The translations under genes were made by a program, and so were the position numbers. The notes under the pieces were generated by a model. The model saw only the letters and a list, made by a program, of their open reading frames with translations. It made no database searches and was not told the origin of the DNA. A stretch of DNA of 37,142 bases, taken from a virus (Duplodnaviria > Heunggongvirae > Uroviricota > Caudoviricetes). The DNA is taken from the IMG/VR virus record IMGVR_UViG_2737471867_000005. One strand, given 5' to 3'. Shown here in pieces: positions 8,830 to 27,794 of this stretch. Within the stretch, counting starts at the first letter, position 1, and every line of letters begins with the position of its first letter.

Positions 8830-10002
8830 TTACGCGCTGACCTGGCTGGCGAAATTCACCAGGTACTGATCGGTGATGCGCTGACGCAGCATCAGGTTTT
8901 CAAGTGGCGGCACTGGCGTGTAGTCGTAGTCGATGGTGAGTTTTCCGGCTTTCAGCGTGTCTTTGTCGTTCACCGACTCATCCAGCCAGCAATCACCACC
9001 AATGAGATAGCCCTGACTGACCAGGCTGCGCATTTTGGCGCGGATACCTTCGATAATGTCGCGGGCCAGCGACGGGTTAAGCGGTTTATCCACCGCCCAC
9101 ATGTGTGCTTCTGCCATCGTGTCCATCAGCACCTGCGCCGTGCGGGTGTAGTTTTCGAAGGCAAAGAGCGGGTCATCACTCAGGCAGCGGGAACCCCAGA
9201 AGCGGAAACCGTCTTTACGCACAAGCGTGGTGACGTCGTTCTGGTTCAGCAGACCTGCATCGGTTGCCGGGTCCTGCAGATCCCAGAACACATCTGCAGA
9301 AATTCCGGTGACACCGTTCACGCCCACGTTGGACAGGCTTTTGTGCCATCCGGTCTGCTCGTCAATTTTGGCGCGCAGACCAAGCGCACGGGCGGTGGCA
9401 TATGCCGTTGCTTCGGCATTCAGCACCGTGTCCCAGCCAGTAAAGTCAGGCCAGATCAGCATCCCTTCGCGCTGGCTGAAGTTTTCGCGGTAAGTGATCG
9501 CCTCCTGCACTGTCTTGCAGCCATACGCTGACAGGTAAGCAAATCCACGCAGGCTTTGCGCCACGCTCAGCAACTCAGTAGCTACCGCCTTGGTGTCGTG
9601 GCCTGGCACGCCGAGAATGCGCGGTTTAACGCCGAGCTGTGACTGGGCAGATAACAGGGCTTTCATACCTGTTTTTTTACCTTCAGCAGTCACTGCGCCG
9701 ATGATATTGGTCGTGGTTTCGTCTTCCGTTTCACCCTGCGGCACACGCACAACAATGGTCACGGGTTTTGCCTGGTCAGCGATGGCATCCAGCGAACGGG
9801 CCAGAGTACCTGACTCACCCGCTTTACCGCTGGCAGTCAGCACATCAGTGATCAGCACGGGTTTATTAAGAGGAAACATTTTTGCATCGGCATCATCGCC
9901 CGTGCAGACCATACCCACGATGGCGGTGCTCACCGTGGTAATAGATCGGGTGCCTTCGTTGACTTCAACAACGCGCACCCCGTGGTGGTAATCCTGAGCC
10001 AT
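8830..10002 (-). CDS. FI: contractile tail sheath protein FI
   Basis: 390-aa ORF, P2 order. Confidence 0.9.
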
Positions 10003-10078
10003 AGTGGCGAACCTCCTGATTGGATTAGGCTTCGCCCTATGTTGAAGTGATTGTGCCTGACAAACAGCTAAGCGCAGT

Positions 10079-10096
10079 TGTGTCGTTATTCACACA
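10079..10096 (-). promoter_or_regulatory. Ogr-type late promoter activator site (TGT-N12-ACA) upstream of FI
   Basis: TGTgtcgttattcacACA dyad lies 77 bp upstream of the FI start. Confidence 0.6.
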
Positions 10097-10144
10097 AAAT
10101 AACGGTATTTGTCTGCTTGCAGTGATAATCAACATAATGCTGAT

Positions 10145-10717
10145 TCAGGGGGATTCATTGATCTTATTTGCCGGAAATTTTCTATAAATGGTAGAAACGC
10201 CTACATCAAAAATCAGTGCAATACGCTGTCTTGATTCTCCGGCCTCGAGTAAACGCCCAATCTGTGCCCACTGTTCGGTGGTCAACTTAGGACGGCGTCC
10301 ACCTACTCTGCCTTTGGCACGAGCTGCAGCCAGCCCTGCCCTGGTACGTTCAACTATCAGTTCGCGTTCCATTTCAGCCATGGCACCCATGACATGAAAA
10401 AAGAAACGGCCCATTGGGGTACTGGTATCAATACTGTCAGTCAGGCTTCTGAAATTCACACCACGCTGGCGCAACTCTTCTATCAGCGTAACAAGATGCC
10501 GCATACTGCGCCCCAACCTGTCCAGCTTCCAGACAACCAGCGTGTCTCCTGCCGATAGTGTCCTGAGTAGTTTTTTCAGCCCCGGTCTGTCGGACTTAGT
10601 GCCACTGATTTTGTCCTCAAAAATCTGCTCACATCCCGCGCAGTTCAGTGCATTACGTTGCAAATCGGTGTTCTGGTCATTTGTTGACACGCGTACATAG
10701 CCAATAAGTATGATCAT
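10145..10717 (-). CDS. serine DNA invertase (Gin/Pin/Cin/Hin family)
   Basis: 190-aa protein with N-terminal IGYVRVSTNDQ catalytic-serine motif and a C-terminal HTH; adjacent to inverted tail-fibre segments. Confidence 0.9.
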   Translation of the reverse strand: MIILIGYVRVSTNDQNTDLQRNALNCAGCEQIFEDKISGTKSDRPGLKKLLRTLSAGDTLVVWKLDRLGRSMRHLVTLIEELRQRGVNFRSLTDSIDTSTPMGRFFFHVMGAMAEMERELIVERTRAGLAAARAKGRVGGRRPKLTTEQWAQIGRLLEAGESRQRIALIFDVGVSTIYRKFPANKINESP

Positions 10718-10738
10718 CCCCCTGAATAAAAACCGGAG

Positions 10739-11215
10739 ATGATGCCAGTTAGCTGTTACCTCTGCATTTTCTTAAACGTTCAATTGGGAGAAGCGGCAAA
10801 ACGGGATGTCGGAACCGGTAATAATCAACTCCCGGACATGTCCGCATTTGGTATGTCGCGAAACGGACAAACTGCCTGGGATATTCTCCCAAATGGTATG
10901 ATTCGACAGGCTGGCACTGTGACACTGACACCAGTTGGTAACTTCAACGCGCAGGTGCTTGGTGGGGTGACGTACTACACCCATTACTACAGGGTTAATT
11001 TCCCCAGACAATTCCCAAATGCACAAATAGCAACGCTGGCAACACTAGCGAGTTACAGCTATTCGACCCAGGCAACAATGGCCGGAAAATCACTGGCAAC
11101 GCATCGCGATACTGATTCTGGCACTGACGTATCAAGAACGCGATTCACTGTGACGTATACGACACCCAATCTCGGCGAAACACCGACACTGCATTTTGAA
11201 GCAATAGGATACTAA
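10739..11215 (+). CDS. alternative tail-fibre C-terminal segment (H variable part prime; no own start, expressed only after inversion)
   Basis: Shares the LGE...AA(K/T)RDVG junction motif with H but runs in the opposite direction; the ATG at 10739 is only an ORF-track start. Confidence 0.65.
   Translation: MMPVSCYLCIFLNVQLGEAAKRDVGTGNNQLPDMSAFGMSRNGQTAWDILPNGMIRQAGTVTLTPVGNFNAQVLGGVTYYTHYYRVNFPRQFPNAQIATLATLASYSYSTQATMAGKSLATHRDTDSGTDVSRTRFTVTYTTPNLGETPTLHFEAIGY
10767..10792. other. invertase recombination site (left, gix/cix-like)
   Basis: 26-bp quasi-palindrome TTTTCTTAAACG-TT-CAATTGGGAGAA with one half-site TTCTCCCAAttg. Confidence 0.55.
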
Positions 11216-11217
11216 AT

Positions 11218-11451
11218 ATGGAGAATATCTATTTCAGCCCGACGACCGTTGGTTTTTATGTTTCTGAACAAGAGCGACCTGATGATGCGGTTGAAGTCTC
11301 GCCAGAGGTGGAGGCATTTTTGAGGGAGTGTGTTATCTGGGGAGCGGATACATTTAACGTAGAGCGAGATGCAGCAACGGTGACATATCCAACAGAACTG
11401 CTTGAATATGTCACCACCTACAACGCCCCCGTTAAATATCCTGCGGATTGA
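11218..11451 (+). CDS. alternative tail fibre assembly protein (short, possibly truncated)
   Basis: 77-aa ORF directly after the alternative fibre end, converging on the active tfa gene. Confidence 0.5.
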   Translation: MENIYFSPTTVGFYVSEQERPDDAVEVSPEVEAFLRECVIWGADTFNVERDAATVTYPTELLEYVTTYNAPVKYPAD

Positions 11452-11842
11452 CAGGCCATACGGGTTTTGCTGTATCAACGCGCATCAGCAAGACCCGGTA
11501 TTTTTTCCATTCAGATAACGCGGCGGTTTCTTCTGCCGTCGCGATTTCCGCATCAAAAGCATCCTGTCTCCAGACTATTTCCTTATCAGCCATAGAACGC
11601 AATACCGTTCTTTTCTGTTCAGCCTGAATAATCTGTTGTTCAGCGGAGAGTGGCGGGATATCAATCCACGCAGGATTACCATTTTTATCAGCCCCCAGCG
11701 TTTTGCCTTGTGGCGCTACGCCTGTGTAAATTGCCATTGTTTCATCATCAACATCAACGCCATTTTCAGGCCATGAACCGGCGCTGATATATACCTCTTT
11801 TAGTGCTTTCGGATAGAAAGAGCCTTTATAAAATTTATTCAT
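11432..11842 (-). CDS. G: tail fibre assembly protein (P2 G-like)
   Basis: ATG 2 nt after the H stop (TAA-GA-ATG); the start is trimmed from the ORF-track 11872. Confidence 0.8.
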   Translation of the reverse strand: MNKFYKGSFYPKALKEVYISAGSWPENGVDVDDETMAIYTGVAPQGKTLGADKNGNPAWIDIPPLSAEQQIIQAEQKRTVLRSMADKEIVWRQDAFDAEIATAEETAALSEWKKYRVLLMRVDTAKPVWPVNPQDI

Positions 11843-11844
11843 TC

Positions 11845-13362
11845 TTAATACCCCAGCGCGATAAAACAACAATCTTCGGTGCCCTCTCCGGATGGCGACC
11901 AGTTCTGAATACTGATATGCGTTCTGCTGGCAATACGCACATTCATCGCGGCATTGTAGCCAGATGTTCCACGGTTTCCGGTCGCAAATAAGCCGGCATA
12001 GGGAAAAGCAAATGGTAAGGCATATCCAGCATCAGCTCCCTTTTGTGTTGCCACCGTTCCCCACTGCAACATAAGTTTCACCGGGTTTCCTGTCGTCGCA
12101 ATGCATGGAATGTAGATGTAGCCACTCCCTGACATCATTGACCTGAAGCTGTCTAAATCCAGTAACTTCGAGGCATTATCTGCTCCAACATCTCGTGTTG
12201 CGGCGGTCCCTAACTGGAGCGCATTTCGGAAGGCTGATACATCAGAAATATCAGCTCCATTAGCCGATTTCTGCATAGCTCCGGAGGCTTTATTTATCGT
12301 TTCTCCCAAACCAAGGTATGTGAGAAGACCAGCTACATCCTTTCCACTCAAATTGGTAAGCGTATTGTCCAGCGGTTGTTTACCTGCCAGCGCATTAAGC
12401 ATTGCCGTGGCAAAGTTCGGATCATTCCCCAGTGCCGCCGCCAGTTCGTTCAGTGTATCCAGTGCAGCAGGTGCAGAACCCACCATTCCTGCAATCGCCG
12501 ATTTCACAAAAGCCGTAGTGGCAATCTGTGTATTGTTGACCGACTGCGCCGCCGTGGGGGCTGTTGGCGTTCCGGTGAGTGCCGGACTCGACAACGGTGC
12601 TTTTAGTGCCAGCGCATTGTTAATGGTGGTACTGAAATTCGGATCATTGTTAATGGCTGCGGCTATTTCTTTCAGCGTGTCCAGCGTGGCTGGCGCACCA
12701 TTAATAAGGGCCGTCAGTGCCGCCTGTACAAACGCAGTGGTCGCAACCTGCGTGGTATTATTCCCCGCCGCTGGCGTTGGCGCTTTGGGGGTTCCGGTAA
12801 ATGTCGGGCTGGCTTTTGGCGCGTACTGTGAATGCGGGTCCGGTGCGGCAAGATGTTTTGCCATCTGATCATCCGCGTACACCTTCAGCTCCAGTGCCTT
12901 GTCATCCACATACTTGCGGGTTGCCAGCACTACAGCAGGGTCGATTTTCAGGGTGATATTGTCCGTGCTGCTGGTAATCAGCACCATGCGCACGGTCTGA
13001 GTGCGCCCGCTACCTTCAGCCAGTTGCGGCTTATAGCTTTCCGGGCAGTTGCCCACGGCAATCAATGCCCCGGACTCATCAAACAAGCCCACTTCACGTA
13101 TCCACCAACCGCCCTCGTTTTCAGGGATCACCTGTTCGGCAATAATCTGGCTGCTGTTCTGCGGGTCGATATAAAGCATATTCAGCGCAGCCCGGCGTTT
13201 CTCATTTACCAGTGCCGTCTGCTTTGCGTCCGGCGTTGGCAATACTCCACCGCCATCGCCCACCGCCATATGGGTAATTTTTAGCGGCACACCGAGCGCG
13301 GCGGCGCTGGCAAGTTTCGCCGCGCCAATATCCGTCAGCAGGGTATAAAATTTTGTGCTCAT
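11845..13362 (-). CDS. H: tail fibre protein H
   Basis: 505-aa protein with a P2 H-like N-terminus (MSTKFYTLLTDIGAAKLA...MAVGDGGG), internal repeats, and a variable C-terminus inside the invertible cassette. Confidence 0.9.
   Translation of the reverse strand: MSTKFYTLLTDIGAAKLASAAALGVPLKITHMAVGDGGGVLPTPDAKQTALVNEKRRAALNMLYIDPQNSSQIIAEQVIPENEGGWWIREVGLFDESGALIAVGNCPESYKPQLAEGSGRTQTVRMVLITSSTDNITLKIDPAVVLATRKYVDDKALELKVYADDQMAKHLAAPDPHSQYAPKASPTFTGTPKAPTPAAGNNTTQVATTAFVQAALTALINGAPATLDTLKEIAAAINNDPNFSTTINNALALKAPLSSPALTGTPTAPTAAQSVNNTQIATTAFVKSAIAGMVGSAPAALDTLNELAAALGNDPNFATAMLNALAGKQPLDNTLTNLSGKDVAGLLTYLGLGETINKASGAMQKSANGADISDVSAFRNALQLGTAATRDVGADNASKLLDLDSFRSMMSGSGYIYIPCIATTGNPVKLMLQWGTVATQKGADAGYALPFAFPYAGLFATGNRGTSGYNAAMNVRIASRTHISIQNWSPSGEGTEDCCFIALGY
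12301..12326. other. invertase recombination site (right, inside H coding sequence)
   Basis: TTCTCCCAAACC-AA-GGTATGTGAGAA; the first half-site resembles the hix/gix/cix half-sites as I recall them. Encodes LTYLGLGE of H. Confidence 0.65.
12361..12798 (-). repeat. tandem duplication (about 2 x 219 bp) within H
   Basis: Protein motifs TGTP.APT.A...NNTQ.ATTAFV and APA.LDTL.E.AAA..NDPNF occur twice in tandem. Confidence 0.55.
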
Positions 13363-13964
13363 GGATTCACTCTCATTGTGTCAATAACATGGACCGCCCC
13401 GCCTTCATGCGCGGTGCCACCGGAAATAATCGTTTCGTTGATATACGGATAGATCGTGATTTCTTCGCCAAGATAGCTGGCGGCTCCCACCCAATGCGGG
13501 CCGCTGGTCTGCAGATTGATGGACATGCCGATCATGTGGCGGCTACATGGTTTGGCATCGCTTATCAGTCGCTCAAGTTCCAGATAGGTATCTTCAGTGA
13601 TACCCTGGTCCTGCACGCCGATATCCAGGCGAAACGTGCCCGGTGTTTCTCCGGTCTGCCACCACTCAATAATGCGGATCAGGAATCCGAACGGCTCCAC
13701 CACCCGCCGCACGGCACTGGTGGTCCCTTTATGCTGATGAATATAAAAAGCATCCTTCACCACCTGGCGCTTGACGCTTTCTGTCCAGCCCTCGTCCCAG
13801 CGATCCACAGAGAACGCCCAGGCGAGATAAGGCAGGAAACTGACCGGACAGGTTGCCGGATTCCACAAGTCACGAAGCGGCACCTGCAGATCAGAAATCC
13901 CGCTGCAGGTTTGCGCCAGTCGGCGCTCCAGTGGTGTTGAACCCGGTGGCAGCAGACTATTCAT
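13359..13964 (-). CDS. I: baseplate protein I
   Basis: 201-aa ORF with a GGAGG RBS; P2 order between J and H. Confidence 0.85.
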   Translation of the reverse strand: MNSLLPPGSTPLERRLAQTCSGISDLQVPLRDLWNPATCPVSFLPYLAWAFSVDRWDEGWTESVKRQVVKDAFYIHQHKGTTSAVRRVVEPFGFLIRIIEWWQTGETPGTFRLDIGVQDQGITEDTYLELERLISDAKPCSRHMIGMSINLQTSGPHWVGAASYLGEEITIYPYINETIISGGTAHEGGAVHVIDTMRVNP

Positions 13965-24630: not shown

Positions 24631-26304
24631 TTAAGATTTATGGCTAAAGAGTATACCTGTAACAGAACGTTGATAGGCATCAAGCTTCTCTTGCCTCTGC
24701 TTAAATTTAGATTTGATATCACTAATACTCGGAATACCTATTACTCCAAGGCCTGCACTTAACGCCGCTAAAGTAGTATTGCCAGTCAGCGCTCCAGCAA
24801 TTGCTATAGCACCATTTGCGATACATGGTAGGACATCCAGTCCGTAAATTCTCAATTTCTCTTTTTGGGCTTTTGCAAGAATCCTTTGATGTTCAATAAA
24901 AGCCCGGTCTACATTATCAATTACTTTTTGCGTTGTCCTCGAAAAGCTCTCTGCCGAAGAATTGATTAAAGAGTCAACACCATTTGATAAGATGGATCTT
25001 ACATCCTCCATCAATTTGTTACGTCTCAACTCAATTATTTTATTGACCGGTACATTTCCTAACCATGAAAAACCATCTTGCATACCAGCAGATAACGCAT
25101 GAACCATATGCAAATTTTTTAGTTCAATATCATTGACATCAAAATTAAGAGATTCGTACTCAATAAGCCAAGTATAATAGAGCCAAGATGTGTCTGCATT
25201 TATATATGGAGTACTACCAAGTTCTTGTGCATTACATTTTGCTGAATAGGCTTGCGGCATTCTTCCAATGCAGGAAAGGAAAACCTCCATTCCAGCATAA
25301 TCACCAACAACATTACGTGATATTCTTTTTTTATCAGATAGTAGTTTTTCTAATTGAGTTTTTGGATTTAGCCCCCATGCTGTATCAAAAATAAGTCTAT
25401 CTGCTCTCTTAATATTTTTAAGAACAGCATCAATATCATTCATCGAATAACTAAAATCTTGAAATTCATCGTAGCTTTCGAACCGTCGATCATAGAGATA
25501 TTGCGCATGAGTCAGAGCATAAGGCTCACAAAAACTCATCAAATTTTTTTTGCTCTCAGTTTCAAAATCTCTTCTATCCGGCAAAATTAATACTATTGCT
25601 GGCTCTATATCTTCAAGCGCTACTTCTTTATATGTCATACATGTTAGGACATGCTTCAGAAGTATCCTTGTAAACTCAGCCTTATCTGACTTTTCATAGA
25701 GACGACCGACTCTTAATATAGGACATGGAAGTGAAATAGTATCAACATACAACCCTGCAATAGAGACAGCATTCTCATCAAATGCAGGAAATAAGTCACC
25801 AGAAAAATTAGCTTTAAACTGAGAACCATCCTGCAAATGTATTACACCAATATCGGATGTTACCTGCCAAAACTCTATTACCTGATTATATAACTCAGGA
25901 AAAATACCTTCTATTTGCTTAACATATTCTTCTTGTTGAGAAAAAAAACTTGATGCTTTATGTGGCGTTGCATTAGTTTTTTTCATCAGATAAAACAACT
26001 CGCCAAAATTACTAAAAAGAATATTAAAGTAAGAACTTTGCAAGTCCTGAATAGAGTATTTGTTTTTTATATCTTCTCTTTCTAAAAAGTGATTAACCGC
26101 TGCTCCCATAGCCCTTATTCTGCCATCAACAGTAGAAGGGTCAACTTTACCATCCTGTCGCAGACTTATTCTTTTAAAACTTTCAATAAAACCTTCTACA
26201 AGATGATGAGCTATTTTTAGTTTTCCCGCTTCCAGTTGTTGCTTAATGAGAAAAACACGCTCAGTTAAATCGTCTACATATTCCTCATCTTGATATTTTT
26301 CCAT
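24631..26304 (-). CDS. uncharacterised 557-aa accessory protein with C-terminal glycine-zipper membrane segment
   Basis: Long AT-rich ORF with a GGAG RBS. C-terminal GAIAIAGALTG...LSAGLGVIGIP is hydrophobic and Gly-rich; no motif I can assign. Confidence 0.75.
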   Translation of the reverse strand: MEKYQDEEYVDDLTERVFLIKQQLEAGKLKIAHHLVEGFIESFKRISLRQDGKVDPSTVDGRIRAMGAAVNHFLEREDIKNKYSIQDLQSSYFNILFSNFGELFYLMKKTNATPHKASSFFSQQEEYVKQIEGIFPELYNQVIEFWQVTSDIGVIHLQDGSQFKANFSGDLFPAFDENAVSIAGLYVDTISLPCPILRVGRLYEKSDKAEFTRILLKHVLTCMTYKEVALEDIEPAIVLILPDRRDFETESKKNLMSFCEPYALTHAQYLYDRRFESYDEFQDFSYSMNDIDAVLKNIKRADRLIFDTAWGLNPKTQLEKLLSDKKRISRNVVGDYAGMEVFLSCIGRMPQAYSAKCNAQELGSTPYINADTSWLYYTWLIEYESLNFDVNDIELKNLHMVHALSAGMQDGFSWLGNVPVNKIIELRRNKLMEDVRSILSNGVDSLINSSAESFSRTTQKVIDNVDRAFIEHQRILAKAQKEKLRIYGLDVLPCIANGAIAIAGALTGNTTLAALSAGLGVIGIPSISDIKSKFKQRQEKLDAYQRSVTGILFSHKS

Positions 26305-26405
26305 AAACGCTCCATTAAAATATTTAATAATGCATATAAGAATAATTAATAATATTTACAGTAACTATATCACATTAGATCCAGATTGTTACACTGTTGC
26401 GCGCG

Positions 26406-26424
26406 CTCGTATCCCCGCCACGCC
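26406..26424. other. cos-like site (cohesive-end core)
   Basis: Minus-strand GGCGTGGCGGGGATACGAG matches the first 13 nt of the P2/186 cohesive end as I recall it (GGCGTGGCGGGGAAAGCAT), followed by GCGCGC. Confidence 0.55.
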
Positions 26425-26624
26425 TGCCCACTTTATGTAGTGGTTTTCATGCACCTGCATGACATAAGCAAAAGCACGCCAGTTCTGGCTGGCATCAGCG
26501 AAAACGATCGTCATACTATCATGCGATCTCATGCGCCATATGAAGTTTTCCTGACACAGCCTTGGGTTGGGATAACACCTAACTCAGGAAGATTTTTTGT
26601 GTGTTTGTAACCCACACCTAGAGT

Positions 26625-27794
26625 TTACCAATCCATGTTTGCGGCATTATCCATCTCACGAGTTAAGTAATTAACAAATAAGTCCATATTCCTTTCTGAT
26701 TTCATCGCCTCCGCATAGGTTCCATTAGTTACGTAAGATAGTATTAAAGGACATCCAGATTCAATATAAATTTTTGCTGGGGACAGTTCTCCCTGCCACA
26801 AATTTTCAAGGAAATCGTTAATTAATTGCATTGCTTCAGGTGCCAAAAAATGCACACCATTTCCAAACTTGAAACGTTCTTTATTTTCTCGATGAGGCAG
26901 CAATAGTGGCACAGCCCCTACACTTGAGTGAAATTCCAATGCTTGCCCATCCTTACCGAAGGCGCCATGGGCTACAAAATTACGCACCTGTTTTCTGAGT
27001 ATAAGTAAACGATCATAGAACAATTTTAGGCTGGAAGAGTTAATATCAATGGCTAATTTGAATTTCTCCCCCCATTCTTTTCCAACTTTATCAGCCACAT
27101 CATTCCCATTTTTTATCTCACCCTTCAAGATTGCAATAAGAATGAAAACATGCTCGGTCCAATTGAAAAATGACTCAATTGCAGACGTTGCTAACCACAT
27201 AGCCTCTCTTCGGAGTTCAATTATCTTATTTGATTGTTCAAAAGTGGATTGTAACAGGCTGAAAAAATTATCAGACTTAAACTCACTATCAACTTCCAGT
27301 TTAGACTCTTGGCCAGCAGCAACTTCATCAAGCTTCTGTTTATATAGCTCTAAAAAATAGCAAAACCTATCATAAAGAGAATTAGCATTGTTATTAACAT
27401 TTAGATTTGAAGTCTTTGCTGCATTGTCTGCAAGCGAATCAAAAAAATTCGTAGCAGCTTTAACCCCTGCGCAAATATGTCTCAAAACAGTTTTAGCTTG
27501 CTCTATATCATCATCACTCTTGATAAATATATCTAAACCAAGTTTACGATGTTCTATAATTACGACAGTCCCATCAATCCGGACTGGGATAGAAAAAGAA
27601 ATCTTCTCATCAACCCCACGATTTTTAAATTTCAGTAAATCTACCAAAAGAAAATAAACGAGATAATACGGAGGTAATGAGTCTCCCAAACCCGAGCGCT
27701 TACCCCAAAAATATTCATCAAGCTCGGCAGACTCCATTGTCCCTATGACTCTTCGGACGCGTTCTTCAACTTTAGCCAGATCCATTCCCCACAC
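26625..27794 (-). CDS. uncharacterised 389-aa accessory protein with HEPN-like R-x4-H motif
   Basis: AT-rich ORF; RNFVAH motif at plus 26967..26984. Start uncertain (GTG at 27794 or ATG at 27785). Confidence 0.7.
   Translation of the reverse strand: MWGMDLAKVEERVRRVIGTMESAELDEYFWGKRSGLGDSLPPYYLVYFLLVDLLKFKNRGVDEKISFSIPVRIDGTVVIIEHRKLGLDIFIKSDDDIEQAKTVLRHICAGVKAATNFFDSLADNAAKTSNLNVNNNANSLYDRFCYFLELYKQKLDEVAAGQESKLEVDSEFKSDNFFSLLQSTFEQSNKIIELRREAMWLATSAIESFFNWTEHVFILIAILKGEIKNGNDVADKVGKEWGEKFKLAIDINSSSLKLFYDRLLILRKQVRNFVAHGAFGKDGQALEFHSSVGAVPLLLPHRENKERFKFGNGVHFLAPEAMQLINDFLENLWQGELSPAKIYIESGCPLILSYVTNGTYAEAMKSERNMDLFVNYLTREMDNAANMDW

Follow-up and report, generated by a model that had tools for sequence, protein, structure and literature searches.

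A probable Gin/Pin-type DNA inversion switch for tail fibres in an intact P2/186-like prophage of Escherichia coli

We have analysed a tail-fibre locus and its adjacent serine DNA invertase gene in a stretch of DNA of 37,142 nucleotides (IMG/VR virus record IMGVR_UViG_2737471867_000005), referred to below as the window. The window was found to be a complete P2/186-like E. coli prophage, which extends from ogr (2856) to the integrase gene (35794), is inserted between ybjL and rcdA, and has a full gene set with no pseudogenes. Positions 10000-13400 are 100% identical to E. coli strain 1283 (NZ_CP023371), where megablast of this query gave one matching place only. On the minus strand, the genes run V W J I H tfa, followed by the invertase and then by FI FII E T (Table 1). 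The invertase is located as cargo between the H/G fibre-assembly genes and the FI sheath gene, which is the Z/fun hotspot of P2; in P2-like prophages this hotspot often holds a DNA invertase, with inversion of adjacent genes (bioRxiv 10.1101/2024.10.15.618418, 2024 preprint).

Table 1. Features of the invertase and tail-fibre locus, in window coordinates.
Feature	Position	Strand	Evidence or remark
FI sheath	8830-10002	-	gene next to invertase
Pin/Gin-family serine DNA invertase, 190 aa	10145..10717	-	Pfam, PDB and identity matches; PGAP (Prokaryotic Genome Annotation Pipeline) start at 10711
Putative recombinational enhancer, inside 5' coding part of invertase gene	10627..10690	-	two Fis-like 15-mers, 64 bp end to end
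Invertase-proximal 26-bp site	10767..10792		core TT at 10779-10780; 49 bp upstream of invertase ATG
Invertible segment, 1534 bp between cores	10780..12313		exact natural flip; limits of the phi458 match
Silent alternative C-terminus Hv', 144 aa + stop	10781..11215	+	Pfam Gp53-like_C; in-silico flip
Partner gene of alternative tip, 77 aa	11218..11451	+	PHROG 188 at N-terminus; conserved position
Tfa of expressed tip, 136 aa	11432..11842	-	Pfam Caudo_TAP E 1e-30; PHROG 188 E 1.4e-41; PGAP
H, whole open reading frame	11845-13362	-	list of open reading frames
Expressed variable C-terminus Hv, 155 aa + stop	11845..12312	-	Pfam Gp53-like_C, H residues 430-505
Distal 26-bp site, inside gene H	12301..12326		core AA at 12313-12314 (+ strand)
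Constant N-terminal part of fibre protein H, through ...LTYL	12313..13362	-	Pfam Phage_tail_fib, residues 1-150
I	13359-13964	-	gene order around switch

The invertase matches the Pfam profiles Resolvase in its N-terminal catalytic part (expectation value, E, 1.5e-53) and HTH_7 in its C-terminal part (E 1.5e-15), as well as the Gin structures 3uj3/4m6f in PDB (E 1e-92), and over its full length it is 85% identical to PinE of e14 and 73% identical to Gin of phage Mu. Together with the gene order, these matches bear out an initial annotation, made from the sequence without database searches, which had placed a Gin/Pin-type serine invertase between FI and the fibre genes in the Z/fun position. 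The catalytic residues Ser11 and Arg44 (S10 and R43 in Hin) are kept, and so are the residues of Fis and enhancer contact, K48, K49, R52, Q152, R155 and L156 in the protein's own numbering, or K47, K48, R51, Q151, R154 and L155 in that of Hin, the register being set by alignment with the Hin DNA-binding domain (1hcr). Basic residues at Hin positions 47, 48 and 51, along with Gln151, Arg154 and Leu155, mark Fis/enhancer-dependent invertases as opposed to resolvases (McLean et al. 2013, PMC3798978). Judged by its sequence, the invertase is an intact member of the Gin/Hin/Cin/Pin small serine recombinases. A shufflon of the Rci type, with a tyrosine recombinase and several 19-bp sfx repeats as the limits of multiple segments, was ruled out, as the recombinase is of the serine type and the window has two sites only. 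A perfect 12-bp inverted repeat (ATTCAGGGGGAT / ATCCCCCTGAAT, at 10143-10154 and 10716-10727) exactly brackets the invertase gene, overlapping its stop codon and its Shine-Dalgarno/start region; with approximately 0.5 such pairs expected per 4 kb by our own estimate, this is probably a coincidence.

Two 26-bp inverted sites with a TT/AA centre had been proposed at 10767..10792 and 12301..12326, and both are upheld by their sequences and by a consensus scan. The proximal site is TTTTCTTAAACGTTCAATTGGGAGAA, with the halves TTTTCTTAAACG TT CAATTGGGAGAA, and the distal site, in reverse complement, is TTCTCACATACCTTGGTTTGGGAGAA, with the halves TTCTCACATACC TT GGTTTGGGAGAA; in inverted alignment they agree at 18 of the 26 positions. 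A repeat search with a 9-nt seed missed the pair because the longest run common to both is only 9 nt. The window was then scanned with the palindrome TTCTCNNAAACCNNGGTTTNNGAGAA, which we take to be the Gin-family site consensus, allowing up to 5 mismatches and with the chance level set by 200 shuffles. These two sites (5 mismatches for the proximal, 1 for the distal) were the only ones in the 37 kb, with 0.115 expected from the shuffles, in line with the family alignment that had been called for. The consensus was checked against phage Mu, where it gave sites at 1455 and 4513 next to the annotated G-segment boundaries at 1467 and 4526, and against e14, where the ends of the P segment were recovered. 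The proximal site aligns with gixR of Mu, at an equal distance from the invertase gene, and in 80 related IMG/VR loci the start of the proximal site is always 75 bp upstream of the invertase ATG, the cores being AA/TT. The proximal outer half CGTTTAAGAAAA is the same in 14 related loci and the distal outer half TTCTCACATACC in 18; both are the commonest outer halves of that set, as GGTTTGGGAGAA is the commonest inner half. The inner half of the proximal site, CAATTGGGAGAA, is atypical and absent from the sample of related loci. A third site, as in a multi-state shufflon, was sought in the window by the consensus scan and none was found. Among the IMG/VR relatives, four loci (L035, L040, L050 and L078) hold three or four sites of the consensus type, and in part these lie downstream of the invertase gene, which suggests multi-state, shufflon-like variants comparable to a three-repeat locus of enteropathogenic E. 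coli (EPEC).

The flipping DNA measures 1534 bp; the segment announced by the initial annotation is present, but the length of ~1.56 kb given there is the distance between the outer ends of the sites. Inversion in silico joins ...LTYL in frame to QLGEAAKRDVG...EAIGY and creates an alternative fibre, H', for which genomes of the flipped orientation have an annotated phage tail protein of 494 aa. The fusion of H to an alternative C-terminus is therefore in frame as predicted, but the constant part ends with ...LTYL and not with LTYLGLGE: inversion replaces the G after LTYL by Q, and both inner half-sites code for LGE. The current H C-terminus and tfa were found on the minus strand, as expected, from their open reading frames and their Gp53-like_C and Caudo_TAP domains. 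Of the alternative cassette on the plus strand, the tip C-terminus was confirmed, but its supposed tfa is a 77-aa protein that lacks the Pfam domain Caudo_TAP. The part shared by Hv and Hv' is only a 24-residue QLGxAAxRDVG motif, and such scant similarity would fit tips that bind different receptors. The junction motif occurs a second time, as NALQLGTAATRDVGA, in the active tip at 12119-12217 (H residues ~383-415), approximately 32 residues past the crossover; this copy resembles QLGEAAKRDVG at the start of the alternative tip and was not scored as a site by the consensus scan.

Whether the segment inverts in nature was read from 5,426 complete E. coli genomes, which were queried with the arrangement of the window and with the same arrangement flipped in silico. 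The window orientation gave approximately 11 full-length, single-piece matches and the flipped orientation approximately 25, the latter at 97-99.5% identity. Compared with strain p10A, the alignment breaks between 10778 and 10781 and again between 12312 and 12315, i.e., at the 2-bp core, and the proximal site of p10A consists of the window's outer half and the window's other inner half. The most precise evidence came from two genome pairs, EM06-18-14 with H32 and CE12-1 with ECCRA-119, which align over 13,401 bp with 0 mismatches once 10780-12313 is flipped, and with 1118 mismatches in each pair, all inside the segment, if it is not. These are two independent, recent and base-precise inversions in nature, with strand exchange within the 2-bp core, and the constant part of H is unchanged in both natural isomers. 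Contrary to a locus seen in one orientation only and with an inactivated invertase, both isomers are present in complete E. coli genomes and the key residues of the enzyme have been kept.

A Caudo_TAP chaperone follows one of the tips only (E 1e-30), the partner of the other being the 77-aa protein, for which no Pfam match, Caudo_TAP included, was obtained and for which BLASTP gave no meaningful similarity to the neighbouring Tfa. Its residues 1-31 match PHROG 188, tail fibre assembly, with E 9e-5. We collected 34 homologues, mostly of 77-80 aa (some shorter or partial), with identities down to 59% in Citrobacter, Enterobacter and Phytobacter. In P2-like phages without an invertase, the homologue occupies the position of gene G, as the sole gene between FI and an H with a gp53-like tip. 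The AlphaFold model of the protein has a predicted local distance difference test (pLDDT) score of 93; Foldseek of this model against PDB gave no match (best E 2.4), and against a viral library weak matches to small 'tail fiber assembly' models (E 0.016-0.04). Taken together, the gene is a probable short fibre-assembly or partner protein, and the alternative cassette is complete.

The tfa and 77-aa genes are convergent and overlap by 20 nt (11432-11451). The two convergent partner genes of these loci always overlap at their 3' ends, the overlap being 29 nt in relatives with two full-length tfa genes (L003 2144-2172, L004 1940-1968, L005 1850-1878), and it may serve as an exchange junction for half-segments made of one tip and its partner. 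Genome matches at 81% coverage have only one of the two cassettes in common. In the middle of the invertible segment, a strong stem-loop (11379-11415, stem of 14-15 bp) follows the tfa stop at a distance of 16 nt and falls within the 3' part of the 77-aa gene. It is stable whichever strand is folded (-24.8 and -16.5 kcal/mol, z -3.6 and -4.05), has no U-run after it and may be a 3'-end or mRNA-stabilising structure.

Two Fis-like 15-mers, GTGTCAACAAATGAC (10690-10676) and GCGCGGGATGTGAGC (10641-10627), were noted within the first ~90 bp of the invertase gene, with a centre spacing of 48-49 bp and with the nearer one ~97 bp from the proximal site. A 17-nt stretch, TCAACAAATGACCAGAA (10687-10671), is unchanged, synonymous positions included, in gin, pin and divergent relatives, and synonymous diversity across 71 invertase genes has its minimum at codons 6-15, a moderate signal from a set dominated by close relatives. 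The enhancer of Hin is 65 bp long with a Fis site at each end, and is situated ~100 bp from hix within the invertase gene (PMC3798978). The layout of 10627-10690 is consistent with it; the element here is putative and falls short of proof. A terminator-like hairpin at 10750-10731, between the proximal site and the invertase start, was dropped, its folding being no better than that of shuffled sequences (z = 0.23).

Based on these data, we consider it highly probable (approximately 0.92) that the locus works as a switch of the Gin/Cin/Pin type, which inverts tail-fibre DNA site-specifically in an intact P2/186-like prophage of E. coli. Dimers of the invertase would bind both 26-bp sites and, by analogy with the family, would meet at a Fis-bound enhancer within the initial ~90 bp of the gene that encodes them; staggered cuts of 2 bp at the TT/AA centre, followed by rotation of the half-sites, would then flip the 1534 bp between the cores. 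As is expected of this family, the reaction would depend on Fis and on negative supercoiling. The late operon would always transcribe the constant part of H, which in the window orientation would be made with the tip Hv, followed by the classical Tfa chaperone, and in the other orientation in frame with Hv', followed by the conserved 77-aa partner. A culture of the lysogen would be expected to release two kinds of virion that differ in their receptor-binding tips. Within this scheme, the anatomy, the in-frame fusion, the exact natural inversion at the core and the intact invertase are shown, and we infer that Fis and the enhancer are needed, that the cis-encoded enzyme is the catalyst and that the host range changes.

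Several points weigh against the switch as described. Strain 1283 is known from a single assembly, in one orientation. The proximal site deviates from the consensus at 5 positions, with CAATTG in its inner half instead of GGTTTG, and this atypical half-site might lower the rate of switching. The predicted Fis sites come from conservation and a loose consensus only, and a promoter scan gave no sigma-70-like promoter for the invertase. Finally, the second partner is not a recognisable Caudo_TAP protein, and the function of the alternative fibre is assumed.

Of the competing explanations, the one that survives best, though we hold it to be improbable, accepts the inversion as real and places its selected role, in the lysogen, in a benefit to the host: made in the cell, the silent or chimeric tip protein would shield a surface receptor from other phages. 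This role might stand in place of a virion function or be added to it. A precedent exists in the closely related P segment of e14, whose flip, driven by PinQ, is reported to create StfE2, a protein that blocks T2 adsorption (PMC12529663); the invertase studied here is 85% identical to PinE. Moreover, whichever way the segment lies, an open reading frame that starts outside it, with the ATG at 10739, crosses the site and continues into the silent tip, and PGAP has annotated it as a gene. However, the prophage is complete, unlike e14, which makes a virion function the simpler one; no plus-strand promoter-like site was found by the promoter scan ahead of 10739, and the GGAG upstream of this ATG is separated from it by only 0-3 nt. 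With respect to the gene itself, PGAP/RefSeq presents the silent cassette as a free-standing gp53-like domain-containing protein (10739-11215), and the ATG has the same position in L001 and L003-L005. The stand-alone gene call from 10739 is likely an annotation artefact, yet an analogue of stfE/StfE2 of e14. In a bolder version, argued by analogy, this reading frame would be expressed in the lysogen as a free, receptor-masking tip protein similar to StfE2.

Pin-family invertases cross-complement one another. The natural flips might be the work, in trans, of some other invertase of this family in the host (such as PinE, PinQ or PinR), with the cis enzyme adding little, a possibility to which we attach a very low likelihood. 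The sites do fit the general family consensus, and PinQ acts on e14 (PMC12529663). Nevertheless, the cis gene is intact with all key residues, the 80 relatives always pair an invertase gene with a proximal site at the fixed distance given above, and strain 1283 has only the one megablast place.

Less probable again is a frozen relic, i.e., a segment that inverts no more and whose two orientations in the databases are old, separately inherited alleles. The degenerate proximal site with its 5 mismatches and the single orientation per assembly would fit such a relic, but the two independent genome pairs show zero differences in 13.4 kb save for the flip, and both orientations are spread across prophage variants of 97-99.5% identity, which points to switching that is recent and repeated. 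Recombination by RecA between the short inverted repeats deserves next to no credence: the repeats do have an identical 9-bp run, TTGGGAGAA, but this is far below the homology that RecA recombination requires, and the crossover is at the TT core and not at the run, so that homologous recombination is not credible as the cause because the core has mismatches on both sides (G/TT/C versus C/TT/G).

The tips and their partners appear to be mobile as units. In relatives of the prophage, this invertase and this constant part of H are combined with other cassette pairs, and the lambdoid phage phi458 matches the window over 10776-12314 only. In phi458 (L098, OP434518; 3501-5897), the 1.5-kb cassette pair of the window recurs, with the sites as its exact limits, in the context of Lom and the tail-tip protein J, with an inserted IS1 and a pin gene reduced to a 279-nt remnant. 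These other cassette pairs and the phi458 copy indicate, at the level of sequence comparison, that the fibre cassettes are modules exchangeable between lambdoid and P2-like phages. The cassette had been described as compact, which is true relative to Mu and P1; within the clade, where the median segment length is 1836 bp (others have 1100, 1455, 1514 and 1530 bp) and 1.5-1.9 kb is normal, the 1.53-kb segment is at the short end of the range and not unusual.

Elsewhere in the window, the gap between the portal and replication genes, which corresponds to the old/tin hotspot of P2, encodes two large hypothetical proteins of 557 and 386 aa (24631-27785). The former has a weak PADLOC match to DitB (E 1.6e-10) and the latter no PADLOC match; both are possible cargo for defence against phages.

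The mechanism, the family and the occurrence of such switches in P2-like prophages have all been published, and current understanding is unchanged by the present locus. It provides a clean natural example of a probable host-range switch by a serine invertase, with both isomers in otherwise identical genomes, and should be useful for the engineering of phage host range on P2-like scaffolds. It is also of use for annotation, as the silent cassette appears in RefSeq as separate genes and the segment carries no label that it can invert. What is new is minor: a short partner protein outside Pfam and an inner half-site, CAATTG, that is atypical. A joint stronger claim, that the 77-aa protein stands for an undescribed minimal class of fibre partner replacing Tfa for one type of gp53-like tip, and that CAATTG shows Pin-type invertases to tolerate three changes adjacent to the crossover, we regard as rather unlikely.

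Among known systems, the P segment of e14 with PinE is similar in its invertase, in its 26-bp sites with a TT/AA core, in the nearly identical inner half GGTTTGGGAGAA and proximal outer half (L012 sites), and in its tip-plus-tfa cassettes with convergent, overlapping partner genes. The segment is also of similar size, 1827 bp between site starts (1797 bp in PMC12529663) versus 1534 bp here. However, e14 is defective, its stfE is a pseudogene and its context is that of a lambdoid-type side fibre, whereas the prophage studied here is an intact P2/186-like myovirus in which the main fibre gene H is affected and in which, unlike in e14, one cassette has a 77-aa partner that is not Caudo_TAP. The G segment of Mu with Gin and the C segment of P1 with Cin share the constant Sc outside, Sv-U and Sv'-U' inside and the invertase just outside; Mu further resembles the present locus in the distance of the proximal site from the invertase gene, in its Gin (73% identical) and in the conserved 5' coding sequence at the putative enhancer. 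They differ in the length of the segment, which is ~3.06 kb in Mu (L011 sites 1455 and 4513), in the families of the tips, and in having a full-length Tfa as the chaperone of either tip.

Tail-fibre inversion in P2-like prophages has been demonstrated in EPEC E2348/69, with coexisting orientations shown experimentally in cultures (Goldberg et al. 2014, PMC4272514). By description, the P2-like loci (PMC4272514; bioRxiv 10.1101/2024.10.15.618418) agree with ours in phage type, in the location between fibre genes and FI and in the alternative fibre C-termini. The EPEC cassette pair probably differs from the one in the window, and one EPEC locus has three repeats (a four-state shufflon) versus the two sites here. 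Hin of Salmonella is a recombinase of the same subfamily that acts on 26-bp sites with a 2-bp core; the residues for Fis and enhancer contact are conserved, and its enhancer, like the putative equivalent here, is placed within the invertase gene at ~100 bp from one of the sites (PMC3798978). In contrast to the present invertase, Hin lies inside its own segment and flips a promoter for flagellin genes, whereas in the P2/186-like prophage it is the coding ends of the fibre gene that are exchanged.

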